Numbered from the stretch's first letter, positions 3,684 through 64,000 are shown. The stretch is DNA of 64,000 nt from an uncultured Candidatus Saccharibacteria bacterium (GCA_964605735.1 CAZSDS010000001.1:406559-470558); one strand, 5' to 3'. The notes: generated by a model not told the origin, from the sequence alone. Program-made: numbers and translations.

Positions 3684-5186
3684 TTAAATATCTTCCTTAA
3701 CTTTTACAAAATCATAGCCTTCTTGTTTTGATTTCTCAATGTATTCTTGAATCATATCCAGAGTTTGTTGAGGCGGATAAACTTCGCCTTTCTCAGGGTC
3801 AATTTCATCCCTGCGCAATTCTCTACCCTGGTCAGTCATAGTACCGATATGGAAAATCCTGATCCGGCCATGACCATTGCTGCTTAAAGCTTTTTTAAGC
3901 AGACTTTCGGATTTTAACTTTGTGCTTGGAGGGATGGCAACCACGTCATATGGGTTTCCGTGTATGATCTGAAGATCCATAGCCTGAAACTCACGCAAGC
4001 TATCAGTAGTGCCATGCACTCCTGCAATACGGCCAATCGTCGGCCTTATGCCGCTCACCTGTTCAATCAGCTCAGTTGTTTTCTTCACATCACCTAAATC
4101 CGCGCGCGGACCGATAAAGCGCTTTGCGTATTCTTTTATCCCTGCATTAGGCTTGGCGCCTTCTTGCGCCCATTCATGAACACCAATGTCATGCCCTTCA
4201 TCAATTATTCTTTTGATAATGTGTTCTCGGCCAGGAATAAGTGATCCGACTATAAAAAATGTAGCTTTGGCATTCTGTTCTTTCAGTATGTCTAAAAGTT
4301 TTTCAGTTTCTTCATTCGGACCATCGTCAAAAGTCAGAGCCATGACTTTTTTGCCTTCTTTTTCCAGCTGCTTCATCTTTTCCGGATTCAATTTCCAGTG
4401 GACGTTCTTCCCAGCTACCCATTCCTTGGCCCCGCTTCTTTCCATAGCCCATTCTATTTTTTCAATCAAGCCGCCCAATCCGATCATTTTCAAAGCACGC
4501 AGTTTATCTTGGCTAGGTTCAAACTTGCCTTCGCTTCCCATAACCTGCTTGGCAATTTCCGGGTTCAATCGGAACATGTTCACAATCTGCGTTTGGTTTT
4601 CCTGGGCGGAATGGAGGATGTCTTCCTTGAACTTCTTTGGGTGGAACAGTTCGGAATCTACCCAGCCGTCAGGGATGTCTGCAGAGTGTCTTTCCAGAAA
4701 ACCATTGAGACGTTCCTGGATCTCCAGTAATTTGTTAAGGAAATCCACTGAGAATTCCTGCATGTTCAATTCTTCCAATGCTTTTGCTTTCTGGTTGAAT
4801 TCAGGGTTTGCGAATTTCTGGACTACATAAAAAGACTGGCCTTCCTGGGAGGAGTCAGATGGTTCACCTTCCACGAACATTGCTTTTGGAAAGAGGTCGC
4901 CCAACTCTTCCTGAGCAGTTTCATAGAATTTCTTCAGTCTAACGAATTCCTCGTGGTTCTTGCCACCTTGGTCAAAATATTCTGTGACTGCGTATTCAGG
5001 CTTGTCAAAATCGCGTTCCTGTCCGCCTTCCAGTTCTATAACCGCTGCTGGCTCCCCAAGCTTATGGATATCAAACTCGTGGTTTTCGTGAACTGCTTCC
5101 AAGTCCCTGTTAAATGGATGCAAGTCTTTTGCTTCTTCTGGTATGTATTTCTCTGGGTTCATGTTACTACTGATAATAATTTTCAC
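3684..5186 (-). CDS. polysaccharide deacetylase (NodB homology) domain protein with large acidic N-terminal region and no signal peptide
   Basis: NodB motifs TFDDGP and HEW... with conserved His/Asp in the C-terminal half. N-terminal ~260 aa unassigned. Confidence 0.6.
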   Translation of the reverse strand: MKIIISSNMNPEKYIPEEAKDLHPFNRDLEAVHENHEFDIHKLGEPAAVIELEGGQERDFDKPEYAVTEYFDQGGKNHEEFVRLKKFYETAQEELGDLFPKAMFVEGEPSDSSQEGQSFYVVQKFANPEFNQKAKALEELNMQEFSVDFLNKLLEIQERLNGFLERHSADIPDGWVDSELFHPKKFKEDILHSAQENQTQIVNMFRLNPEIAKQVMGSEGKFEPSQDKLRALKMIGLGGLIEKIEWAMERSGAKEWVAGKNVHWKLNPEKMKQLEKEGKKVMALTFDDGPNEETEKLLDILKEQNAKATFFIVGSLIPGREHIIKRIIDEGHDIGVHEWAQEGAKPNAGIKEYAKRFIGPRADLGDVKKTTELIEQVSGIRPTIGRIAGVHGTTDSLREFQAMDLQIIHGNPYDVVAIPPSTKLKSESLLKKALSSNGHGRIRIFHIGTMTDQGRELRRDEIDPEKGEVYPPQQTLDMIQEYIEKSKQEGYDFVKVKEDI

Positions 5187-25197: not shown

Positions 25198-25330
25198 TTA
25201 AATCAGTCACAGTAAATGTGCCATATAAACCAAAGCTAACCAATAAAAAATCACGACCGCGTTGTGCAAATCGTGATGCAGTGATGCGAGTATAACAAAA
25301 AGCACTGTTATTAGCCAGTGCTTTGTTTGT

Positions 25331-42384: not shown

Positions 42385-42553
42385 AATAATTATTTTAATT
42401 ATATTCCGGTTTATTTTACTCTCTCGCTCTTGCGAGTAAATCCGCTTATGTTCACAAAAATATGGTGGCGTCCTGTCCGTACGGGACGAAAATAACCGAA
42501 CCAATGTTTATTGGCAAACAAAAAGCACTAGCTTTCGCTAATGCATTTTGTTA

Positions 42554-45218: not shown

Positions 45219-45848
45219 ATGATACCACTCTCTGATGAAACAAGGCCAAACCGCACGCCGTTAGTTACTTACCTGCTCCTTGCGGCAAATATTGTGATAT
45301 ATTTTATGGCAACGGAAGCAGACATAGACCTTTACGGCCTGCATGCCGGTGATCTTCTGGCCGGGACAAACTTTTTGAACGTAATCACTTCCATGTTTTT
45401 ACACGGCAGTTTACTGCATGTGATTTTCAATATCTGGTCGCTTTGGATTTTTGGCGACAACGTGGAAGATGATTTAGGACATATAAAATATCTGGTACTC
45501 TACTTGGTTTCAGGCGTGGTCGGCGGATACTTGTTTGCATTGTTTGCTGAACCAGAGGCAATTGCCATTGGCGCGTCCGGTGCAATTTCAGGAGTGATGG
45601 GGGCTTACTTGATTTTACATCCTAGAAACCGTGTACTGGCTTTAATCCCGCTGGGGTTCTTCATCACCACAGCGCGCATCAGCGCGCCCGTATTTATTGG
45701 CCTGTGGTTCTTGCTGCAGTTTATAGGGTTTACCGCCGCAACTGAAACAGGAATCGCCTACTCTGCGCATATAGGCGGCTTCCTTGCTGGCCTTATTCTT
45801 GCCTGGTTGCTCAAACCAAGCAGGCCAAAAGTTGAAGTCGTGCAATAA
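45219..45848 (+). CDS. rhomboid family intramembrane serine protease
   Basis: GASGAISG catalytic Ser and downstream AHIGG catalytic His in TM helices. Confidence 0.8.
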   Translation: MIPLSDETRPNRTPLVTYLLLAANIVIYFMATEADIDLYGLHAGDLLAGTNFLNVITSMFLHGSLLHVIFNIWSLWIFGDNVEDDLGHIKYLVLYLVSGVVGGYLFALFAEPEAIAIGASGAISGVMGAYLILHPRNRVLALIPLGFFITTARISAPVFIGLWFLLQFIGFTAATETGIAYSAHIGGFLAGLILAWLLKPSRPKVEVVQ

Positions 45849-45874
45849 AAAACACTGGAACTGACCAGTGTTTT

Positions 45875-50467: not shown

Positions 50468-50501
50468 AAGCCACCGCTCAGAAATGGGCGGTGTTTTTAT
50501 T
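50468..50501 (+). terminator. rho-independent terminator (copy 1 of an identical 34-nt module)
   Basis: AAGCCACCGCTCAGAAATGGGCGGTGTTTTTATT: CACCGC/GCGGTG stem plus T-run. Confidence 0.65.
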
Positions 50502-50585
50502 TTCCACTCTTTACAAAAACAGCGCCATCTTATATTATTCCTTATCGTTCCTTTAAACAGCACTCAACCTATATTGGAGGAAAAT

Positions 50586-51596
50586 ATGGAAGCATTGGTT
50601 TGGCTGCTCGTCTTCCCCTACATGTGCATTGGCTACCTCATCGGGATGGCCGCAAACAACCTCTACCTGGACGACCGGCCCAGTGAAGAGTTGACCTTGC
50701 CCAACCGGCTGGCTCGCCTTCTATTCTTCCCGGCTAGTTATCACAACTGGCCCCAAAGGAGCATCGGCGGGGAGTCTGAGGTAGGTCTCGGTTTAAGAAC
50801 TATGGCTGAGGCGCATTTCAGGCGCGACACTCCACCAACGCCGGAACAGCTTCAAAGCTATTGCAGGCTAACATCAGTCGTGTGGCCCATGAAACTCATC
50901 ACGGTACCGTTCTTCCTCATTCAAGTAATTGTCCTATTGTGTTTCATGCCTTTCAGTTATGTAGGCAGGTTGGCGGAAAACACAACCACCAAGCTCGTTT
51001 CTCTGCTCTTTGGCAGCAAGGACATGCAGGATGAAATGGAGAAGAAAATCAACTCCATAAAAGATTTCCTGGAAAAGGAACTGTCCGAGTACTTTGCCGG
51101 CCTGCAGGAAAAAGAAAAACGGTTTGCAGGGCGCCGCAACAAAATCCTGCATCAAATTGAGGAGTGGACAAAGATCCGGGGAGAGGCTTTAGACCAAAAT
51201 CTGCCGACTGACCGGATTGATCTGGTGCTCATGAACCTCAGACAGCACCAGAAGGAAACTGAAACATCGGAGATGAAAAGCCGCGAGGCCACCAAGTTCA
51301 TCGAACAAAAAAAGCGCGAACTCGAGTTTCTCGTCCGCATGCTAAGGCGCTACCAGGAAACCAGCAGCCTGCTCCTGAGCATTAATTCAGAAATTGACCT
51401 TGATCTTGATGAGGGGATCAAAACCAAGCTTGATTCCGCCAACGAGATCATAACCGTTTGCCGCGAGGTTTACACCCTGGACAGCAAACTCCTGCCAATT
51501 CGGCCGAAAACTTCAGATCTTGCTTCGGAAGAATGGCAAAAGCCCGAGATGCAGGCCAACCAAACACCTCAGGCTTCGCTTCCATCAATCCACTGA
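50586..51596 (+). CDS. hypothetical membrane/coiled-coil protein (GC-rich)
   Basis: Strong RBS GGAGGAAAA upstream of MEALVWLL. Two N-terminal TM helices then a long charged coiled-coil. Listed ORF begins at 50484 with an alternative start. Confidence 0.5.
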   Translation: MEALVWLLVFPYMCIGYLIGMAANNLYLDDRPSEELTLPNRLARLLFFPASYHNWPQRSIGGESEVGLGLRTMAEAHFRRDTPPTPEQLQSYCRLTSVVWPMKLITVPFFLIQVIVLLCFMPFSYVGRLAENTTTKLVSLLFGSKDMQDEMEKKINSIKDFLEKELSEYFAGLQEKEKRFAGRRNKILHQIEEWTKIRGEALDQNLPTDRIDLVLMNLRQHQKETETSEMKSREATKFIEQKKRELEFLVRMLRRYQETSSLLLSINSEIDLDLDEGIKTKLDSANEIITVCREVYTLDSKLLPIRPKTSDLASEEWQKPEMQANQTPQASLPSIH

Positions 51597-51609: not shown

Positions 51610-51643
51610 AAGCCACCGCTCAGAAATGGGCGGTGTTTTTATT
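51610..51643. terminator. rho-independent terminator (copy 2, identical to 50468..50501), bidirectional position
   Basis: Identical 34-mer. Sits between the convergent genes 50586..51596 (+) and 51649..53424 (-). Confidence 0.65.
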
Positions 51644-51648
51644 TATTT

Positions 51649-54207: not shown

Positions 54208-57200
54208 CTATTTTTCAATGGCTAATTTAATAACCTTGCCGTCGAGGCTTACTGGTTCTTCGTTCTCGAGATTTTTGGCTGAAACTTCCTTAACAAAGGT
54301 CTTTTTACGGTCAAAAAGATCCATGGCTTTTGCCAGTTCTTCATCAGAAGTATCATAAGCCAAATTAACCATTTCGCCAACCTTTAAGCCGGACTTTTTG
54401 CGCATATCCTGGACAATTCTTTCAAGGTTGCGGGCCAAGCCTTCCAGCTTCAATTCAGGGCTGATTTCCGTATCCAGATACAGATGCTGGACATACCTGG
54501 TACCGGCATATGTTTTCACAAGCTCACCGGATTGGCTGACAAGCTTATCGTCAACCAACTTTACGTTTACTTCTGAAGCCAGAATTGCGGCCAGTTCGGG
54601 ACTCAATTGCACATCAGCTTTTGTCTGAACTGCCAGTCTTGATAATGGCTGGCGGATAGGCAAACCCAATTCTTTTCTCGCGTTTAAGGCAACACTGGCC
54701 GCTTCCCGGACAGCTTCCATTGCCGCGAGCAGTTCAGTTTCATCTGCGGACAAAGTCCTGGTCTCCGGCCATACTGCCAAGTGCACAGACTCTGCGTCAT
54801 TTTCCTGCCTCAGAACCTGCCAGATGTTTTCTGCCAGAAACGGCGTAAACGGCGCCATAAGCAAGCTCAGGGTCTTCAATACCTTATACAGGGTTTGATA
54901 AACTGCCGGACCTTTGCGTTCGCGGGAGCGGCGGACATACCAGGTGGAAAGCTCATTGATGAAATCTTCAATGCTCCTGGACGCTCGGAATGCGTCAAAA
55001 TTATCCAAGCTTTCAGTCACTGAGTTAACCAGCTCCTGCGTCTTTGCCAAGATCCACTGATCCAACACATCCAAAGCATCAGTTTCTTTCTCTGACGGTG
55101 TCCATTTATCAAAACTCGAGTAAGTCACAAAGAAGCTGAGCACGTTCCACAATGTCAGGAAATTCTTGCGTACAATCAGATCAAGGTCGCGCTCTGCAAA
55201 CAATTTGGAATCGCCGGGCTGGTTGATCGAATACATATACCAGCGCACTGCATCCACTCCCTGCTTGTTCATCGGTTCCCAAGGATCAATGATGTTGCCT
55301 TTGGACTTGCTCATCTTTAAACCTTTTTCGTCAAGCAAGTGCCCCAGACAGATGACGTGCTTGTATGCAGGGCCTTTGCCTAAGATGGTTGAAATGGCCA
55401 GCAGAGTATAAAACCAACCCCGAGTCTGGTCAATTGCCTCTGAAATGAAATCAGCCGGAAACTGCTGGCGGGCCAGGTTGGCATTTTCAAACGGGGCGTG
55501 CCATTGGGCGTACGGCATGGCGCCTGAATCAAACCACACATCCAAGACAGACGGCACGCGCTTGGAATCATTGCCACAATAAGGACATGGCAAAACCACT
55601 TCGTCAATGTAAGGGCGATGCAAATCAGTAAGGCCTAGCTCTATTTGGGTAAACTCCCCCACCTGCGGATAATGGTTGGCAACATCATAGTACTGGTTCA
55701 TCAACCAAATGACATCTCCGTGCGTCACCAGCAAAATCTTCTTGCCGTTGTGCTTGGAATTCAGTTCGCTGACAAAATCAAGCATGCGGGTCTGAAGATC
55801 CATATAGGATTCCCCGCCCTCTGGCGCCTCCTGCCATCTTCTCTGCACTGGCCAGTCTTTATGGTACTCTTCCAATTTTTTGCCGTTGTACACGCCAGTA
55901 TTGAATTCCCTTAATCGCGGGTCAAATTGGACTTCAACTCCCAAAATCTTTCCTGCAATTTCAGCAGTTTGCTTGGTTCTCACCAAATCAGAGGCAAAAA
56001 TCATATCCACACCACCTAATGCTTTGATTTTTTCACCCAGTTCATGAGCTTGTTTTTCACCTAGTTCGGTCAGTGGCATTGGCGTGGTTTCCGGATAATG
56101 CATATGGATTCCCTGCACCACGTTTTGCGCCTCACCGTGCCGGGCAATATAAAAGTGGTTTTTGTTCAGCTTCAGCTCATCAACACTGCCGATTATCTGG
56201 TGTTTTTTGCAGTGTTCGCATTTCCAAATCGGCAGAGGTGTGCCCCAGTATCTTTCGCGGGAAATTGCCCAATCCTTGATCTCTGCCAGCCAATTTCCAA
56301 AACGGCCATATTTAATGTGGCTTGGATTCCAGGTAATTTGTTCATTGTTTTTGATCAGGTCTTCGCGCAGCTGGCTCATTTTTATAAACCAGGATTCGCG
56401 GGCGTAATACAACAGCGGGGTGTCACAGCGCCAGCAATGCGGATATTCGTGCTCATACTTCTCTTTTCTTGCGAAATTTCCGTGCGACTTCAGGTGGCCG
56501 AAAATTTTGCCTTCCGTGGCTTCGTCCTTTACATACATTCCGGCCAGTTCTTTGACTTCAGGCACAAATAATCCGGCATCATTAACCGTATGGATTTTCG
56601 GCAGGCCGACTTTTTCTCCCAACTGGTAATCGTCCTCACCATAAACCACTGCTGTGTGCACTACTCCGGTTCCGTCTGTGGTTGTGACAAAGTCAGCGTC
56701 ATAGATTTTATATGACTGCGGCGTTTTCAGGAATTCCACTTCAAACAGCGGTTCGTATTCCAGGCCAAGCAGGTCTTTGCCCTTCATGCTGGCAACCACC
56801 TCCGGGTTTTCACCTGCAGCTTCCAATCTTTCCTTGGCTAAAATCCAAAACTCATCTCCAACTTTGACTTTTGCGTATTCAATGTCTTTGCCTACGGCCA
56901 AGGCCACGTTCCCCGGCAAGGTCCACGGCGTGGTGGTCCAGGACAGGATGTAGGTATTTTCCTGGTTTTTTAGTTTAAATTTTACGTAAACCGAGTTGTC
57001 TTTTACGGTTTTGTATCCTTGAGCCACCTCATGCGAAGAAAGCGCGGTGCCGCAGCGAGTGCAGTAAGGCAGAACTTTGTGGCCGAGATAAACCAGATCT
57101 TTGTCCCAAGCCTGCTTGAGAATATTCCAGATGGATTCAATGTACTTGTTGTGGTAAGTGATGTACGGGTTTTTCATGTCCACCCAGTAACCCATGCGGT

Positions 57201-57624
57201 GGGTCAGCTTTTCCCAATCATCCTTGTATTCCCAGACAGACTGTTTGCACAAACGGTTGAATTCAATGATTGACTCGCGGACAGTCGGGCGGATGGATTC
57301 AATCTGTTTTTTTCCGGAAATCTGGAGTTTTTTTTCAATTTGAAGCTCAACAGGCAAACCGTGCGTATCCCAGCCAGCTTTTCTGTTTACAAATCTGCCA
57401 CGCATTGTCTGGTAACGAGGAATCAGATCCTTGAAGGCACGGGCTTCCACGTGGTGCAGTGCTGGTTTGGCGTTGGCAGTTGGAGGGCCTTCGAAAAAGA
57501 CAAAAGGTTTGCCATCTTTGGTTTGTTCCAGGCTTTTTTCAAAAATTTTGTTGTCTTCCCAGAACTTAAGGACGTTTTCTTCCATCTCCGGAAAGTTGGG
57601 TTTTGGATTAAATTCTTTGTTCAT
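54208..57624 (-). CDS. ileS: isoleucine--tRNA ligase carrying an inserted histidine-phosphatase (phosphoglycerate-mutase-like) domain
   Basis: HIGH-type (PTANAKPALHH) and KMSKS motifs, CP1 editing domain, type-2-like C-terminus. Start taken at MNKEFNPKP. Listed ORF extends to 57678. Confidence 0.9.
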   Translation of the reverse strand: MNKEFNPKPNFPEMEENVLKFWEDNKIFEKSLEQTKDGKPFVFFEGPPTANAKPALHHVEARAFKDLIPRYQTMRGRFVNRKAGWDTHGLPVELQIEKKLQISGKKQIESIRPTVRESIIEFNRLCKQSVWEYKDDWEKLTHRMGYWVDMKNPYITYHNKYIESIWNILKQAWDKDLVYLGHKVLPYCTRCGTALSSHEVAQGYKTVKDNSVYVKFKLKNQENTYILSWTTTPWTLPGNVALAVGKDIEYAKVKVGDEFWILAKERLEAAGENPEVVASMKGKDLLGLEYEPLFEVEFLKTPQSYKIYDADFVTTTDGTGVVHTAVVYGEDDYQLGEKVGLPKIHTVNDAGLFVPEVKELAGMYVKDEATEGKIFGHLKSHGNFARKEKYEHEYPHCWRCDTPLLYYARESWFIKMSQLREDLIKNNEQITWNPSHIKYGRFGNWLAEIKDWAISRERYWGTPLPIWKCEHCKKHQIIGSVDELKLNKNHFYIARHGEAQNVVQGIHMHYPETTPMPLTELGEKQAHELGEKIKALGGVDMIFASDLVRTKQTAEIAGKILGVEVQFDPRLREFNTGVYNGKKLEEYHKDWPVQRRWQEAPEGGESYMDLQTRMLDFVSELNSKHNGKKILLVTHGDVIWLMNQYYDVANHYPQVGEFTQIELGLTDLHRPYIDEVVLPCPYCGNDSKRVPSVLDVWFDSGAMPYAQWHAPFENANLARQQFPADFISEAIDQTRGWFYTLLAISTILGKGPAYKHVICLGHLLDEKGLKMSKSKGNIIDPWEPMNKQGVDAVRWYMYSINQPGDSKLFAERDLDLIVRKNFLTLWNVLSFFVTYSSFDKWTPSEKETDALDVLDQWILAKTQELVNSVTESLDNFDAFRASRSIEDFINELSTWYVRRSRERKGPAVYQTLYKVLKTLSLLMAPFTPFLAENIWQVLRQENDAESVHLAVWPETRTLSADETELLAAMEAVREAASVALNARKELGLPIRQPLSRLAVQTKADVQLSPELAAILASEVNVKLVDDKLVSQSGELVKTYAGTRYVQHLYLDTEISPELKLEGLARNLERIVQDMRKKSGLKVGEMVNLAYDTSDEELAKAMDLFDRKKTFVKEVSAKNLENEEPVSLDGKVIKLAIEK
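55618..56157 (-). other. Histidine phosphatase superfamily (branch 1, PGM/SixA-like) domain inserted inside IleRS between the WKCEHC and CPYCGN zinc-knuckle halves
   Basis: IARHGEAQ (RHGE catalytic motif) ... LTELGEKQAHELG ... FASDLVRTKQTAEI ... DPRLREFNTG ... PEGGESYMDL ... ILLVTHGDVIWLM: all hallmark blocks of the histidine phosphatase fold, in-frame within ileS. Confidence 0.7.
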
Positions 57625-57640
57625 ACTTCCCTTATCTTTG

Positions 57641-57697
57641 GGGAGCAGGTCGTTCCGCTCGGCGCACGCTAATCGCAAGCACCTCGCCGGAACGAAC
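57641..57697 (-). promoter_or_regulatory. Long imperfect hairpin (~21 bp stem) immediately upstream of the ileS RBS
   Basis: GGGAGCAGGTCGTTCCGCTCGGCG ... CGCCGGAACGAACCTGCTCCC. Ends about 10 nt before AAGGGAAGT-ATG. Confidence 0.5.
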
Positions 57698-57993: not shown

Positions 57994-58449
57994 TTGTATA
58001 TGCCAAGTCTAGCCTCCAACAAAAAAGCTTTCCACACCTACTCTATTGAAGATTCTCTAGAGGCTGGCATTGTCTTGGAAGGACCAGAGGTGAAAAGCGC
58101 AAGAAATGGCCAAGTCAGTTTAAGTGGCGCTTACGTGACCATCAAAGGCGGCGAAGCCTATTTAAAGAATGCCTTTATCGCCAAATACAAAAATGCACCA
58201 CAACAAGAGCTATATAATGAATACCGCGACCGCAAACTTCTTCTCCACAAAGACCAGATATCAAAGCTGGCACACCGGCTGGATGAAAAAGGCACAGCAA
58301 TTGTTCCGCTTGAAATTTACACCAGCAAACGGCGGATTAAAGTGAAAATTGCAGTTGGAAAAGGTAAAAAGCAATTCGACAAACGCGCAACCATTAAAGA
58401 AAAAGAATCCAAACGAAAAATTGATCGAACCTTGCGCCAAAGAGTCTAA
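57994..58449 (+). CDS. smpB: SsrA-binding protein
   Basis: SmpB signature (KSARNGQVSLSGAYVTIKGGEAYL...KLLLHKDQISKL...GKGKKQFDKR). Confidence 0.9.
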   Translation: MYMPSLASNKKAFHTYSIEDSLEAGIVLEGPEVKSARNGQVSLSGAYVTIKGGEAYLKNAFIAKYKNAPQQELYNEYRDRKLLLHKDQISKLAHRLDEKGTAIVPLEIYTSKRRIKVKIAVGKGKKQFDKRATIKEKESKRKIDRTLRQRV

Positions 58450-58461
58450 AAAAACACCTTC

Positions 58462-59514
58462 TCAGGTGTTTTTTTCAACTCCAGCGACTGTGGTGGATAT
58501 GCTGATAATGCTGTTGTAAAGTGCGACCTGGCTTAAGGCGCGTGCTTTATTGTGCGCCTTCCTGCTCTTATATTTAGTTTCATCCCAGCCAAAATACGAA
58601 TCCTCAACATAGTCATTAAGGAAGCGCGTAGCAAGCCCAAGAATAATGTAAGTAACTGCCTGAGGAATAAGTCTGTATTCCCGCTCAGAAAGATAGCCTG
58701 TTGCTTGTAATCTATACCCTTCCAAAAAGGCGTTGGCTATTTCTAAGTTAAACGAATTGGCAGGATCATCTTCCTTTTTTCCGCACCACGAGCGCAGTGC
58801 ATCTCCCAAATCATACAAAGGACTTAACTTCTGTATGGTATCCAGATCTATCATACAAATCGCTTCTTTGTTTTCATTGAATACAAAGTTCGATATCTTA
58901 GGATCAGCATGGATAATCCTAAGCGGCAAATCAGAAGGTAAGGCCAGTTTTGGCAGCGCGTTCAGTATAAGCTCAGTTGCCTCTCGCACAGCAGGGTCTT
59001 CGTCAGAAAGAAGCTGGTCTTTGTATTTTTTCAACTTGGATATTTCATTTTCATATCTAAAAGATTTGCGGCCATCTTCAAGCGGCTTTGGGTACTTTGT
59101 CATTGCCAGGTGAAACTCTGCCAGTTTTCTGCCTGCCTCATAGGCCAGCTCAGGATCGTTAGTCTGGTTGAAAATTTTACCTTTTACGCCTCGGAGCAAA
59201 CGCCAGCGCCAGCCGGTCAGTTCACTATCCTCCACCCAGATACAGTCTGATTTTGTCTTAACCAGACTTTGGGCTGCCATGCCTAATCCCTTTAGATATT
59301 CTGTTACGTTCAAATAATTATGCATTGCCCCATCCATTGATACAGCAGGGTGAACAAACTGCAGCACGTATAAATCAGAATCATTTTTCCCCACATGGAA
59401 AAGAAAGACTTTGTTAACCAAGCCATGAGTTTGCTCGTGGAGTTCCACTTTATCCAGATTTATTCCTGGTATGTCCCAGTTACCAAGAATTGATTTTGGG
59501 TCAATGTCAGTCAT
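58462..59514 (-). CDS. phosphotransferase enzyme family (APH/choline-kinase-like) protein
   Basis: Brenner motif region IIHADPKISNF and DLDT. Start taken at MTDIDPK. Listed ORF extends to 59679 into the repeat. Confidence 0.55.
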   Translation of the reverse strand: MTDIDPKSILGNWDIPGINLDKVELHEQTHGLVNKVFLFHVGKNDSDLYVLQFVHPAVSMDGAMHNYLNVTEYLKGLGMAAQSLVKTKSDCIWVEDSELTGWRWRLLRGVKGKIFNQTNDPELAYEAGRKLAEFHLAMTKYPKPLEDGRKSFRYENEISKLKKYKDQLLSDEDPAVREATELILNALPKLALPSDLPLRIIHADPKISNFVFNENKEAICMIDLDTIQKLSPLYDLGDALRSWCGKKEDDPANSFNLEIANAFLEGYRLQATGYLSEREYRLIPQAVTYIILGLATRFLNDYVEDSYFGWDETKYKSRKAHNKARALSQVALYNSIISISTTVAGVEKNT

Positions 59515-59618
59515 TACCGTAAAGTATACTTTATGCCAAGATTTTCCCGCAAATTGCTTAAAAAATGCACAAAAAACCGCATCTCTGCGGTTATATACAA
59601 TTTTTTTTGGTGGAGCAG

Positions 59619-59724
59619 AACTGATCAGGTGCCTGCCTGCCGTCAGGCAGGGAAAATTGCTGCTTGTCCGCCGAAGCACTAAGCGCGAAGGTGGATGGCT
59701 TTAGTTAGCCAAATTATAAAGCTC
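59619..59724. repeat. 106-bp noncoding repeat, copy 1 (105/106 identical to 63766..63871)
   Basis: GGTGGAGCAGAACTGATCAGGTGCCTGCCTGCCGTCAGGCAGGGAAAATTGCTGCTTGTCCGCCGAAGCACTAAGCGCGAAGGTGGATGGCTTTAGTTAGCCAAAT. Contains a perfect 8-bp hairpin CCTGCCTG-CCGT-CAGGCAGG. Partial similarity continues ~50 bp to the right. Confidence 0.8.
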
Positions 59725-59782
59725 TGGTGAATTCTAACAGTTCTAGCTCTGGATCCAGCCTAGCTTCCTCAAACCATTTCAT

Positions 59783-62479
59783 CTATGCAAGCTTAACTTT
59801 TTCAAAGGTTATTTTTTGTGCTTTGCTATCATAAACAGCTTCAGCCTTATCGCCCTCAGTAATTTTCCCTGACAGCATCTCTCGAGCAAGTTCAGTCTCA
59901 ATCTCGGATTGAATTTTCCGTTTCAATTCTCGCGCACCAAACTCGGGCGTATAGCTTTCCTCTGAAATTTTTTCAACAACCGGTTGAGTAAAAATCAATT
60001 CAATGCCTTGTCCGCGGGCAGTCTGTCGGACCCGCTCTAACTGCAGAGTGGTGATTAATTTGATCTGCTCTTTTGTAAGCGCGTGGAAAATGATGATTTC
60101 ATCTATGCGATTTAAAAATTCGGGACGGAACCGTAAACGCAATGTTTCCATTAAGCTCTCCTTTAACTGTTCAGTTGATTTTTGCTCTTGCTTTTTAGCG
60201 GTAAGATTGCTTTGAATAATATCAGACCCAATATTACTCGTGGCAATAATAATCGTATTAGTGAAATCAACCAGCCGTCCCTTACCGTCGGTTAATCGAC
60301 CGTCATCAAATATTTGCAACAAAATATTATAAACATCGGGGTGAGCTTTTTCGATTTCATCTAAAAGAATGACACTATACGGGCGTCTTCGTACCGCCTC
60401 AGTCAACTGACCACCCTCCTCGTAGCCGACATATCCTGGCGGTGCTCCGACCAGCCGAGAAACTGCATGTCGTTCCATGTATTCACTCATGTCAATCCTG
60501 ATCATCGCATCTTCATCTCCAAAAACTGTCCATGCCAGGGCTTTGGCTAACTCTGTTTTTCCAACTCCTGTTGGGCCTAAAAACATAAAATTTGCAATCG
60601 GTCTGTCTTTGGCCGAAAGACCCGCTCGGGATCTTCTAATGGCATCAGAAACAGATACCACAGCCTGATCCTGCCCAATCACCCGCTCGTGTAATTTTTT
60701 CTCTAATTGCAGAAGCTTGTCTCTCTCTTCTTGGGTTAGCTCATAAACTGGGATACCTGTGATTTTTGAAACCACTTGTGCGATATGCTCTTTAGTAACT
60801 TCTGCGGTGGTAACGCCTTTTTGTTTGCGCCAAGCACTTTCTTTTTCTCCTCGAGTAATTTCCATTTTTTTAATTTGAGCCTCCTGCTTTTTAGCAGTAT
60901 CAAATTGTTTATGACCTACAGCGTAATCATGTTCTCTTTTGAGCTTAGTAATCTCATCATCGATTTGTTTAACCGCTTCCGGTCGGGAGGAGATGGTGAT
61001 TCTAACTCTGGATGCGGCCTGATCTATAAGATCGATGGCTTTATCAGGCAGAAATCGATTACTTATGTATCTATTTGATAATTCAGCGGCTGCGACAATG
61101 GCTTCGTCGCTGATTTTAACCTTGTGATGAGCTTCATAACGGTCACGAAGTCCGCGCAAAATTTCAATTGTTTGTTCAATTGTTGGCTCACTAACAAATA
61201 CTGGCTGGAATCTTCTTTCTAAGGCAGCATCCTTTTCAATATGCTTCTGGTATTCGCTTAATGTTGTAGCGCCAATAAGATGCAACTCTCCCCGGGCCAA
61301 GTGCGGTTTAATTACATTCGAAGCACTTAAGCCACCTTCATCTCCCATGCCACCGGCGCCGACAATAGTGTGCAACTCATCGATAAATAAAACCAACTCA
61401 TCTTTATGAGCTACGACTTCGTCCAGAACCTGTTTAATACGCTCTTCAAATTCCCCGCGGTATTTGGACCCTGCCACCATAGAATTTAAACTAAGCTCCA
61501 GCACTCGTTTATTTTTCAATGTCTCCGGCACTTGGTCTTGAATCACGCGTTGAGCTAATCCCTCTACAATGGCGGTTTTACCAACACCTGGTTCTCCAAT
61601 TAAGACAGGGTTATTTTTTGAGCGTCTGGAAAGTATTTCAATTGTCGTTTCAATCTCTTCAGCACGCCCAATCACAGGGTCAAGTTTGTTGTTACGCGCC
61701 AACTGGGTCAAATCACGGGAATATTTATCCAAAGTTGGGGTGGTCGTATGAGTTTCTACTCTGCCTTCCGCAGCACCTCGCCCGACAATTTTAACTATTT
61801 TTTGCCGCAAAGCTTCCGGTGTCAGTCCATATCTTCGCAGTAAATCCCCAGCCATGCCTTCGTCTTCAATTAAAAGTGACAATAATAAATGCTCAGGGCC
61901 AATATAATTATGTCCAAGTTCGTTGGCTGACTGAAAAGCAATTTCAAGTACTGTCTTAATGCGGGGGGAAATACTTAACTGAACGGTTTGGCCTTTTTCG
62001 GTCTTAAAGTTACCTTTCGGACTATTATTCTCAATAAAACTTTTGATATCGTCCGAATTTATTTTGAACTGTTTGTAAAGCTCTTTCACAACATCACTGT
62101 CCGAAATTGAATGCAAGAGATGTTCTGTATCAACTTCATCACGATTAAATTTAACTGCGGTTTGTGCGGCGTTTTGAATAAGCTCCTTGGTGTGGTCAGA
62201 AAGATATTGATCAATATCCACCGCCTCCCTATGACGAGGCAATGGGTAGCCTATGCGGGACGATAGATTTTCGAAATCATCGCCAAAATCCGAGAATAAA
62301 TCATTTAAGCCATTATTCTGGGAAAACATCCGTTCAAGTGGAGATCCTGCCTGTTGGCTCTGGAGTCTTCTTAAGTCCAGACTGCAAACACTAATCGTTT
62401 CTCTAATCCCATTTCGAATAACTGCGACTTGGTTAGTTGCCGGTCTTATTCCGCAAATATCACAAATCCGTTCAACCAT
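59783..62479 (-). CDS. clpC: ATP-dependent Clp protease ATP-binding subunit ClpC (two AAA+ modules, UVR-like linker) with Cys-rich N-terminal extension
   Basis: Two Walker A sites ([16 protein letters not shown]), Clp_N repeats, UVR motif in the middle domain, ClpB/ClpC signatures. N-terminal ICDICG...VC zinc-ribbon-like extension. Confidence 0.9.
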
Positions 62480-62500
62480 TTGTAATTCCTTTCCAATAAT

Positions 62501-63058
62501 TCATGTTTTTAATCCGGCAGCCCTTAGGGCTCGAATGAGATTTTTATAATAATATGATCCGTCGTGGCGGACACCATTAACATAAAATGTTGGTGTGCCA
62601 TTTACACCGCTTCTGACACCACTTATAAAATCTCGATCAACTTTTGTTTTGTAAATCCTGCTGGCTAAATCATTGACAAATTTATCTGCATCCAAACCCA
62701 ATGCCTGGGCATAGCGTACTAAAGATGCCTCATCTAGAGCATCTTGATGTTCAAATAATGCGTTGTGCATTTCCCAAAACTTTCCCGCAGATCCCGCAGA
62801 TTCTGATGCTTCGGAGGCTTGCTCTGCGTGGGGGTGAATTTCTGTCAGGGGAAAATGACGATAACTAAAAAGGATTTGATTGCCGTAAACTTTTAATATG
62901 TCTTTTACTATGCCATAAACCTCGCCGCAGTGCGGGCATTCAAAATCGCCATATTCCAACATGGTTATATTACTGTTCTGATTGCCAATCACATGATCGG
63001 AAGCGTCAATGGGAGTAGTAAGTTTGGCGGTAATTGCTTGTGATTGAAATACTTCCAT
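62501..63058 (-). CDS. DsbA-like thioredoxin-fold protein (no obvious signal peptide)
   Basis: CPHC active site in a YGDFECPHCGEVY context. Confidence 0.75.
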   Translation of the reverse strand: MEVFQSQAITAKLTTPIDASDHVIGNQNSNITMLEYGDFECPHCGEVYGIVKDILKVYGNQILFSYRHFPLTEIHPHAEQASEASESAGSAGKFWEMHNALFEHQDALDEASLVRYAQALGLDADKFVNDLASRIYKTKVDRDFISGVRSGVNGTPTFYVNGVRHDGSYYYKNLIRALRAAGLKT

Positions 63059-63337
63059 AGTAATAATTATCTCCTAATCTTCAACATAACCTTTCTAGAT
63101 AAACAAAGGTATGGGTGTTTTATCATATTGAATCCCAACAGGACTGCTAGTTTTTGTGCGTTTCTATCATTACATACAAAAGACCCCGCCTTTACCCTAG
63201 GTCTTGGCGGGGGTGTTTTCGTTCCTAATGTAACGGAGCCTAAATATAGCTATAAAAAGCCTTTTTTTCCATCAAAAAGTTTTTTCTCGCTTTGGTCTCA
63301 AAAATGGAAAACTAAAAAAAGCGCTAATGAAAGCTCT

Positions 63338-63583
63338 TTATTTTAGAAAATGTTTCTTCATAAAAGCTCTGCCTGATCCTGATTTCAAATATTTTTCAAA
63401 TTCTTTTGCTTGATCAGTATCAGTAAAAGCAAAATAACCAACTAATTCCCAAGGTTTAAATTTATTAGTGTGAGTTGATTGTCCAGCATTATGATACTCC
63501 AAACGCTTTTCATAATTTCCAGAATAACCGACGTAGTGTTGGTTTGGTTTTGAAATACTCTTGATTAGATAGACGTAAAACAT
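63338..63583 (-). CDS. GIY-YIG nuclease family protein (small, URI-domain)
   Basis: FYVYLIKS...HYVGYSGNYEKRLEYHN...E (GIY-YIG). Start at MFYVYL. Listed ORF extends to 63697 through structured noncoding sequence. Confidence 0.65.
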   Translation of the reverse strand: MFYVYLIKSISKPNQHYVGYSGNYEKRLEYHNAGQSTHTNKFKPWELVGYFAFTDTDQAKEFEKYLKSGSGRAFMKKHFLK

Positions 63584-63592
63584 AAAAATGCA

Positions 63593-63765
63593 ATCCTTAA
63601 AAATAGATTGCATTCTACAATAGGTCCGCCTTCGCGTAAAGCTTCCGCCTTCGTCAAGACTCCGGAGGAATAGCTTCGGCGGACAGACTTCGCCCACGAT
63701 GTTGGCAGTAATCCCAGGTGGTGAAACCAGACGTAGCTAGTCTAGCTTAATCCTGGGCGAAGTCT
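63593..63765. other. Highly structured noncoding segment adjoining repeat copy 2 (nested inverted repeats)
   Basis: Outer 9-bp IR CTTCGCCCA/TGGGCGAAG enclosing CCCAGG/CCTGGG and small hairpins (GGTGAAACC, GCTAGTCTAGC). GCTTCGGCGGACAG at ~63647 is complementary to CTTGTCCGCCGAAGC inside the repeat. Confidence 0.4.
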
Positions 63766-63871
63766 GGTGGAGCAGAACTGATCAGGTGCCTGCCTGCCGT
63801 CAGGCAGGGAAAACTGCTGCTTGTCCGCCGAAGCACTAAGCGCGAAGGTGGATGGCTTTAGTTAGCCAAAT
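63766..63871. repeat. 106-bp noncoding repeat, copy 2
   Basis: Same 106-mer as 59619..59724 with one T/C difference. Confidence 0.8.
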
Positions 63872-63942
63872 ATACCACACGTTGGTCAATTCTAGCAGTA
63901 ACCTAGCCTTAAGTCCAGTATAAAGCCTATTAGCCAAAAGCC

Positions 63943-63971
63943 TTGACAAAAGGCTGTTTTTGTGCTAATAT
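63943..63971 (+). promoter_or_regulatory. Near-consensus sigma70 promoter at window edge
   Basis: TTGACA, 17 nt, TAATAT. The downstream transcript lies outside the window. Confidence 0.5.
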
Positions 63972-64000
63972 TAGACGTTATAATCGGCTATTGAAAAGTG

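Follow-up and report, generated by a model that had tools for sequence, protein, structure and literature searches.

What is a near-identical, non-coding sequence of about a hundred nucleotides doing twice, 4 kb apart, in a genome of the Candidate Phyla Radiation (CPR), with a gene for a small GIY-YIG nuclease beside one of the copies? The locus lies in a 64,000-nt stretch from an uncultured Candidatus Saccharibacteria bacterium (GCA_964605735.1, CAZSDS010000001.1:406559-470558), hereafter the window; coordinates are those of the window in plus-strand numbering, and L-numbers are labels of loci that we fetched from sequence collections. An earlier note on this DNA, which gave no strand, had proposed a dispersed small non-coding RNA family, an element like a miniature inverted-repeat transposable element (MITE), or a conserved regulatory or terminator module. 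In our analysis the repeat reads best on the minus strand, as two paralogous genes for a small non-coding RNA, the second of which carries a GIY-YIG cassette at its 3′ CCA end. We give this composite reading a probability of about 0.55. We take the copies for paralogous small RNA genes because their conservation has sharp borders, a promoter motif recurs across genomes and the terminators are private to each copy. The features on which the reading turns are the following.

59608-59714, minus strand: body of the small RNA gene (here the a-unit), copy 1, stand-alone; it reads ATTTGGCTAAC...GCTCCACCA and scores 71.8 bits with the covariance model R1 described below.
63765-63871, minus strand: a-unit, copy 2, with the GIY-YIG cassette beginning right behind its 3′ CCA; 83.2 bits with R1.
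63338-63583, minus strand: gene for an 81-aa GIY-YIG nuclease, catalytic domain only, Slx1/UPF0213-like (PF01541, E = 4.4e-14).

A repeat search and alignment delimit two direct copies of 107 nt at an offset of 4157 nt, which differ solely at T59657 versus C63814 and are thus identical at 106 of 107 positions; on the minus strand both end in GCUCCACCA. Neither blastn nor nhmmer finds a third copy in the window. The earlier note had rightly seen a near-identical repeat, twice about 4 kb apart and with one base different, as well as its gene context: copy 1 has clpC (59783-62479, minus strand) on one side and an APH-family gene (58462-59514, minus strand) on the other, and copy 2 is upstream of the small GIY-YIG gene. 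Its coordinates stand for copy 2, while those for copy 1 (59619-59724) were about 10 nt too high. The perfect 8-bp hairpin that it described is present in both copies, and the outer arms GGTGGAGCAG and CTGCTTGTCCGCC pair over GCAG/CTGC and not elsewhere. The flanks of the copies are only about 50-60% identical, against 106/107 in the copies themselves and 82-96% among the paralogues of a second genome, L164.

The repeat is not an assembly artefact, since an independent Logan contig (SRR7082976, 4110 nt) runs precisely from one copy to the other and breaks off within each, and since the outer flanks of the two copies are unlike each other. A duplication produced by assembly, which the near-identity of the copies and the breaks of the only other assembly of the region would fit, is hardly credible: besides the differing outer flanks there is the internal mismatch, the independent contig connects the inner flanks and ends in the repeat as a true two-copy repeat would, and L164 has a homologous multi-copy arrangement. 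Derivation from a known tRNA or rRNA fragment, the other way in which the repeat might have been explained away, was also tested, with a negative outcome.

Three signals around the copies argue for the minus strand.

59731-59739, minus strand: promoter-like extended -10 motif TGTTAGAAT, 19 nt upstream of TGGCTAAC in copy 1.
63889-63917, minus strand: promoter-like site of copy 2 (TGGACT, 17 nt, TG-extended TAGAAT), from the promoter scan.
59568-59592, minus strand: intrinsic terminator, AACCGCAGAGATGCGGTT and then TTTTTGTG, 16 nt past the CCA of copy 1, from the terminator scan.

On this strand TGTTAGAAT and TGCTAGAAT precede copies 1 and 2 at equal distance, and the extended -10 pattern TGNTAGAAT (TGnTAGAAT) has two matches in the 64 kb, each 19-20 nt upstream of one copy. 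The weaker similarity that had been noticed for about 50 bp beyond the repeat is present in the alignment and arises because both copies carry this motif. Behind copy 1, the terminator stem occupies 59592-59575 with a T-run behind it, and space remains for a separate promoter of the APH gene; copy 2 has no terminator at the corresponding point, where the cassette lies instead. The tRNA-His gene of the window has the same layout as copy 1 (encoded CCA, short spacer, terminator), and the CCA of its tRNA-Arg is encoded too. What emerges, from sequence signals only, is a conserved body with a promoter and a terminator of its own between divergent flanks.

Relatives of the a-unit occur in two other CPR genomes. 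We built the covariance model R1 on the two window copies together with the units that precede the L164 and L168 cassettes. It detects six copies in three genomes (window, L164, L168), with scores of 61-89 bits; in about 0.85 Mb of other loci, among them all other cassette loci, no score exceeds 14 bits. Two further L164 copies came to light with R1, at 73 and 61 bits, and both are stand-alone. The three L164 units (1997-2062, 2812-2879 and 4666-4731) share one orientation and lie within 2.7 kb with genes interleaved, a clustering that resembles that of the window copies. The unit at 1997-2062 has TGGTAGAAT before it, as part of ACTGnTAGAATTnAC and with the spacing found in the window; about 60 kb of other CPR loci contain no ACTGnTAGAATTnAC. 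This unit is followed by the terminator AAAAAACGGC-TTTCATTG-GCCGTTTTT and the second stand-alone unit by one of different sequence, the two unrelated terminators lying 15-30 nt past GCTCCACCA. In all six copies homology stops precisely at CCACCA; beyond it are three different terminators or the cassette.

Other routes to relatives were unproductive. The closest ClpC proteins are 73% identical, and their loci have a different gene order and no copy of the unit. The phage and plasmid collections gave no DNA match to the repeat, and scans of viral contigs with four motifs gave chance matches only. The pattern GGTGGAGCAG-N35-60-GTCCGCCGAAGC matched 19 loci in the genome collection; three of them (L003, L006 and L011) are chance matches in GC-rich sequence, and the remaining 16, their sequences unread, were judged to be chance from the unrelated organisms they belong to.

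The unit of the window differs from its relatives in having two additional hairpins.

59697-59710 (copy 2: 63854-63867), minus strand: H1, conserved 5′ hairpin GGCU-AACUAA-AGCC, seen in folds.
59666-59695 (copy 2: 63823-63852), minus strand: H2, a 30-nt GC-rich module TCCACCTTCGCGCTTAGTGCTTCGGCGGAC resembling repetitive extragenic palindromes (REPs), absent from basal a-units.
59632-59651 (copy 2: 63789-63808), minus strand: H3, the perfect 8-bp hairpin CCUGCCUG-ACGG-CAGGCAGG, a second insertion; on the plus strand it appears as CCTGCCTG-CCGT-CAGGCAGG.

From TGGCTAAC to CCACCA, the basal unit of L164 and L168 measures 51 nt and that of the window 104 nt, or twice the length; alignment places H2 directly behind H1, then H3. 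The window unit owes its length to two hairpin insertions, one of them REP-like and of the same family as a module in the leader of the GIY-YIG gene (module B, below). The H1 stem switches from GGCU/AGCC, shared by two genomes, to CCUU/AAGG in L168, with the loop AACUAA kept. Past H1, the basal unit consists of about 35 nt without a stable fold and with two CCACC motifs.

This layout resembles that of the C-rich small RNAs of the RoxS/RsaE type in Firmicutes, which have a 5′ hairpin, a single-stranded C-rich stretch, an intrinsic terminator and several paralogues per genome. The CCACC motifs of the unit could likewise pair with G-rich ribosome-binding sites. There is, however, no sequence similarity and no Rfam match between them, so the analogy is one of layout and not of membership.

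We then compared the repeat with known RNA classes. With Rfam 15 at the gathering score, the whole window yields two tRNAs elsewhere and nothing at the repeat; at E ≤ 10, 59450-59850 and 63550-64000 give chance-level matches only (E ≥ 0.86). The Rfam/Infernal comparison proposed earlier thus assigns the repeat to no family, nor does Rfam match the L164 copies. ARAGORN finds no tRNA or transfer-messenger RNA (tmRNA) at the repeat, the window holding only tRNA-His and tRNA-Arg, and neither ARAGORN nor RF00005 finds a tRNA cloverleaf in the repeat. Integron attC core sites, compared by eye, do not match. The general Rfam results include no self-cleaving ribozyme family; such families were covered in them incidentally and not by an aimed search.

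The closest likeness is to the 3′ end of tmRNA. The last 9 nt of the unit, GCUCCACCA, are the tmRNA 3′ end of L164, L165 and L185, and the same cassette sits behind both tmRNA and the unit. A tmRNA is marked by a tRNA-like domain with a T-arm and a 7-bp acceptor stem with G3.U70. The unit, in contrast, lacks a T-arm, an acceptor stem and a tag reading frame: no T-arm can be drawn before CUGCUCC-ACCA and no complementary 5′ strand is available for an acceptor stem, and ARAGORN and RF00023 detect the true tmRNA of L164 but not the unit. An internally deleted or two-piece tmRNA was dropped as an explanation, as L164 has a normal tmRNA plus three units. The window itself encodes SmpB (smpB, 57994-58449, plus strand), and ARAGORN and Rfam find no tmRNA gene in its 64 kb; the tmRNA gene of this genome must therefore lie elsewhere.

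The gene behind copy 2 proved the key lead, and the earlier hint that a GIY-YIG gene here signals mobile DNA was probably right. The PF01541 domain spans residues 1-72 of the 81, and Pfam finds no C-terminal sequence-specific DNA-binding domain in the protein. It has 845 homologues, and Y3, Y5, Y17, G19, R27, H31 and E63 are invariant in 12 of them. The closest homologues (79-81% identical) are encoded on other CPR-type contigs, two of them named Doudnabacteria. Compared with the Slx1/UPF0213 proteins (YhbQ, BH0048; PDB 1ZG2), similarity extends over the whole domain and includes the GIY-YIG motif residues, although it is weak, at 20-24 bits (E = 5.8e-4 against 1ZG2 and 2e-3 against SLX1).

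These loci were traced because a metagenome search with the H2 hairpin led to L101, a low-GC locus with, in this order, a tRNA-Ser gene, hairpins and a small GIY-YIG gene 49% identical to that of the window. In other genomes the left junction reads CCA|GACTTCGCC, that is, CCA|GAC(T/C)..., right behind the CCA of an RNA gene that varies between loci.

L165-167 and L185-188: bona fide tmRNA (CPR) upstream.
L193: tRNA-Val upstream, the cassette lying between tRNA-Val and tRNA-Phe.
L194-203: tRNA-Gly upstream.
L204-208: tmRNA upstream (Planctomycetes, 66% GC, stem covaried).
Window, L164 and L168: relative of the repeat unit upstream.

A variant of the leader stands behind tRNA-Ser in L101 and tRNA-Glu in L076. 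In the Planctomycetes loci (L204-L213), tmRNA, hairpin A, module B and a GIY-YIG gene (58% identical) follow one another at about 979-1743; L206 comes from assembly GCA_022071975.1. The order is the same in the four contigs checked (L204, L206, L207 and L208) and the protein is found on 16 contigs from different samples, by which the arrangement is stable within the species. An APH-family gene adjoins the stand-alone unit of the window and another adjoins the cassette in L194-L203 (L194:2449-3432), maybe by coincidence. In the literature, with most subscription journals outside our search, we came across no account of this RNA or of small GIY-YIG genes that have a conserved leader and adjoin CCA ends.

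Between the CCA and the start codon lies a structured leader, which completes a cassette of about 430 bp (hairpin A, module B and the 81-codon gene).

63684-63766, minus strand: leader hairpin A, CAGACTTCGCCC...GGGCGAAGTCTG, whose stem takes in the CA of CCA.
63624-63684, minus strand: leader module B, GTCCGCCGAAGC...CGCGAAGGCGGAC, of the H2 hairpin family with a 36-nt insert.
63585-63616, minus strand: AT-rich hairpin before the ATG, containing AAGGA as the probable ribosome-binding site; specific to the window.

In the relatives, hairpin A reads CAGACTTCGCC...GGCGAAGTCTG and module B GTCCGCCGAAGC...GAAGGCGGAC, and both are found in every locus with enough upstream sequence; their window equivalents together occupy 63766-63624. 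Hairpin A recurs in six loci, four of its stem pairs showing compensatory changes, and the stem also covaries in the Planctomycetes locus L206. RNAalifold applied to six leaders gives 33 consensus pairs, 6 of them with compensatory double changes; the outer stem of the consensus includes the CA of CCA, and a conserved U.G wobble falls on the sense strand. By these alignments a structured leader of the GIY-YIG gene is conserved across loci. The 3′ arm of module B bears a Shine-Dalgarno-like GAAGGCGGA a few nucleotides before the ATG in the relatives, and in the window a second TAGAAT (63612-63617) precedes the AT-rich hairpin.

The 170-nt segment with nested inverted repeats that the earlier note described before copy 2 is this leader. 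Its suggestion of a regulatory or terminator module accordingly finds no support for the repeat itself, the flank of copy 2 being the leader of the GIY-YIG gene. The small non-coding RNA family, by contrast, is the best supported of its three proposals, through the promoter and terminator signals, the sharp borders and the relatives in CPR genomes, with the transcript predicted. As for the MITE-like element, the idea holds for the nested 30-nt hairpin and fails for the 107-nt unit, whose ends (ATTTGG... and ...CCACCA) are not inverted repeats and which shows no target-site duplication in the flanks of any of the six copies.

The segment before copy 2 also folds back onto the repeat. The flank sequence GCTTCGGCGGACAG (63673-63686) is complementary to 63821-63834, as had been noticed, and it and GGTCCGCCTTCGCG pair with the repeat because H2 and leader module B belong to one hairpin family. 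The fold could be taken for a structured plus-strand RNA of about 250 nt (63622-63871) antisense to the leader, with copy 1 as its truncated 3′ duplicate or its target. On the plus strand, 63600-63960 folds at -138 kcal/mol (z = -5.5), the outer helix has two mismatches, which read G.U on this strand and A.C on the other, and a plus-strand terminator is found at 63939-63955. The minus strand, however, folds as well (-138.5 kcal/mol, z = -4.8), the promoter scan finds no plus promoter upstream of 63622, the terminator at 63939-63955 suits neighbouring transcription units too, and the leader wobble pairs on the sense strand. Unit, leader and open reading frame are, moreover, co-oriented with the tRNA or tmRNA in every related locus. 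We regard a plus-strand RNA as improbable, and a pair of minus-strand RNA genes as the better account of the same sequences.

Several observations point to mobility of the cassette. The tmRNA gene is without a cassette in L164 and with one in the distant relatives L165 and L185, and a single Doudnabacteria genome carries cassettes at two RNA genes (L164 and L193). The GIY-YIG protein is 79-81% identical between distant contigs, against 73% at best for ClpC. L194 has the intact 3′ end of tRNA-Gly, CCA included, at 1905-1948, and a decayed second copy of this end that lacks the CCA at 2307-2340, immediately past the stop codon; the second copy reads as an insertion scar, and the CCA of the intact tRNA-Gly may come from the insert. 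In L214 the cassette stands behind what resembles the 3′ part of a tRNA-Ser, and an intact tRNA is missing there. Leader-only copies (A and B with no open reading frame) are located right behind the tRNA CCA in the GC-rich contigs L048, L071, L074 and L076. From this pattern, the cassette is probably an itinerant, selfish element of CCA-ending RNA genes, and the a-unit one of the genes it has occupied.

Free-standing GIY-YIG homing endonucleases offer a partial parallel. SegB of phage T4 is encoded in a tRNA gene cluster; as in our loci, the nuclease gene has tRNA genes on one or both sides, not all relatives possess it and adjacent sequence seems to move along with it. Unlike SegB, which PMC13096335 discusses, the window protein has 81 residues and a catalytic domain only, is chromosomal in CPR bacteria and Planctomycetes and has no homologue in the phage and plasmid collections. 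The cassette also has a precise junction right behind the CCA and a conserved two-hairpin leader, and cleavage is putative.

The 3′ ends of tmRNA genes are classic integration sites, and the cassette shares with tRNA and tmRNA islands its target, the 3′ end of a CCA-ending RNA gene, as well as the decayed duplicate on the far side in L194. It differs from them in having no integrase, in its size of about 0.4 kb and in a duplicate unseen in most loci. The two copies could themselves be read as the attL and attR sites of a 4-kb island (GIY-YIG, dsbA-like and clpC genes) in an RNA gene, given that direct repeats with a tmRNA-like CCA end flank a block of genes and that the L194 cassette is bracketed by a duplicated tRNA 3′ end. 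We consider this very unlikely, for no tyrosine or serine recombinase is encoded between the copies (the reading frames are GIY-YIG and, as housekeeping-type cargo, ClpC and a DsbA-like protein), both copies are complete units with promoter-like motifs and not a gene plus a 3′ fragment, and L164 has three copies at irregular spacing.

In a closer competitor the unit is the 5′ terminal segment of the mobile cassette and serves as a portable promoter that imitates a tmRNA at its 3′ end, the stand-alone copies being relics or MITE-like offshoots that loss of the cassette or incomplete copying left behind. Each of the three genomes with the unit has one copy fused to a cassette, the last 9 nt of the unit (GCTCCACCA) are as in tmRNA, the copies cluster locally in direct orientation, and L214 suggests that cassettes may carry upstream fragments. 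Yet each stand-alone copy has its own well-formed terminator within 15-30 nt and no trace of hairpin A, and the promoter motif is kept at stand-alone copies (copy 1 of the window and the first unit of L164) and not specifically at those bearing a cassette. The unit also lacks terminal inverted repeats and target-site duplications. We therefore hold this alternative to be possible but doubtful, and prefer independent RNA genes, one of which was invaded.

The 30-nt module is distributed very widely. The hairpin occurs three times in the window, once per repeat copy and once inverted in the flank, and matched more than 120 metagenome contigs; the 124 matching loci comprise 120 metagenomic and 4 viral ones, 75 of them with the same 6-nt spacing. 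Across 68 distinct instances the information content is zero outside about 33 nt. Many extragenic copies of a palindrome, with conservation confined to the hairpin, are thus a property of the 30-nt module only. The metagenome contigs L040-L159, of high GC content for the most part, are extremely rich in the hairpin TTCCGCCTTCGCGC-NNN-GCGCTTCGGCGGAC, which often stands beside GTAG-containing hairpins (CCGCCGTAGCTCGCGAAGCGAGCGTAGGCGGG), at times in tandem arrays (L050, L087); 7 of the 12 tRNA genes in these loci are within 400 nt of the module.

The resemblance to REPs, their doublets (REPINs) and the associated tyrosine transposases (RAYTs) lies in short, GC-rich palindromic hairpins with very many extragenic copies, in a single-copy nuclease gene flanked by the same hairpins and in the existence of hairpin-only copies. 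The enzyme beside the modules is, however, a GIY-YIG and not an HUH/Y1 transposase (no RAYT search was made), and full-length cassette copies sit at tRNA and tmRNA 3′ ends. A GIY-YIG homologue is encoded just downstream of the module in 3 of the 124 loci, and it is from these co-occurrences only that we infer a causal link between nuclease and hairpin.

If the minus-strand reading is right, the unit would be transcribed as a small RNA that ends at the terminator or is trimmed to CCA. Its tmRNA-like 3′ end would make it a site for the GIY-YIG cassette, which would have replaced the terminator of copy 2 and would now be co-transcribed with it. Phage homing endonuclease genes are known to have RNA hairpins that mask the ribosome-binding site, and module B may similarly limit translation here by pairing with that of the GIY-YIG gene. 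Movement of the cassette would be driven by the nuclease. The identity of the copies at 106 of 107 positions may stem from recent duplication or from gene conversion, possibly triggered by the nuclease. As a guess from the layout, the RNA could be a trans-acting, C-rich base-pairing regulator whose tail mimics the tmRNA 3′ end.

A number of points weigh against this account. The unit family is known from three genomes; its basal RNA is weakly structured past H1 (fold z-scores of -1.8 to +1.1), and the compensatory changes come from one lineage, L168, so that structural support for an RNA gene is thin. A second -10-like sequence, TATAAT/TAAATT, abuts H1 and makes the start of transcription ambiguous, and the two mismatches in the long-range pairing of copy 2 weakly favour the plus strand. 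For the cassette, a protein search of 72,556 plasmids and 50,697 phages found no member of the GIY-YIG subfamily and so no vehicle for its mobility; a protein scan of IMG/VR gave two loci only, and a protein without a DNA-binding domain is unlike a classic mobile element.

Alternatively, the steady linkage to tRNA and tmRNA genes may mark a function in the RNA metabolism of the cell. Such a function was proposed for prokaryotic Slx1-like proteins, for which fusions to TrmH and linkage to COG4123-type methyltransferases were the only associations of this kind noted (PMC1564403). In the literature that we searched on Slx1/UPF0213 proteins, we met neither linkage to CCA ends nor a structured leader.

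A broader proposal is more tentative than the reading of the locus itself, and we would sooner doubt it than adopt it. The GIY-YIG protein and its GC-rich hairpins might form an undescribed class of minimal, nuclease-driven mobile elements that target the CCA ends of tRNA genes, tmRNA genes and small RNA genes whose ends mimic those of tRNA. Leader-only and 30-nt module-only derivatives, themselves non-autonomous, would have spread like REPs in CPR genomes and soil bacteria. In this view the a-unit would be a small RNA that serves as a landing pad by virtue of its tmRNA-like 3′ end, with paralogues kept near-identical by nuclease-induced conversion. SegB, REP/RAYT systems and tRNA/tmRNA islands, the nearest known kinds, each have one or two features in common with what we describe, and each fails on a defining one, namely the DNA-binding domain, the RAYT and the integrase, respectively.

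If these readings hold, three things would follow. CPR bacteria, whose non-coding RNAs are to our knowledge almost uncharted, would possess a family of small RNAs, several copies strong and ending like tmRNA, that is open to modelling and searches. The stand-alone proteins of the Slx1/UPF0213 type, widespread yet of obscure function, would gain a testable context at tRNA and tmRNA CCA ends in distant phyla, together with a conserved structured leader, as a minimal selfish element or with a role at tRNA and tmRNA 3′ ends. Finally, a very abundant GC-rich hairpin of soil metagenomes could be matched with a candidate enzyme, much as RAYTs were with REPs.

Elsewhere in the window, the isoleucyl-tRNA synthetase gene (54208-57678, minus strand, 1156 aa) encodes a PGAM-like histidine-phosphatase domain (PF00300, residues 510-662, E = 2.7e-37) inserted in the class I synthetase core. 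Two terminator-like hairpins of 35 nt, AAGCCACCGCTCAGAAATGGGCGGTGTTTTTATTT, at 50468-50502 and 51610-51644, are 100% identical, lie 1142 nt apart and enclose the open reading frame at 50484-51596. Three others, AACAAAAAGCACT...AGTGCTTT, at 25294-25324, 42517-42547 and 45844-45874, share 74% identity, and one of them is located just past the tRNA-His gene.

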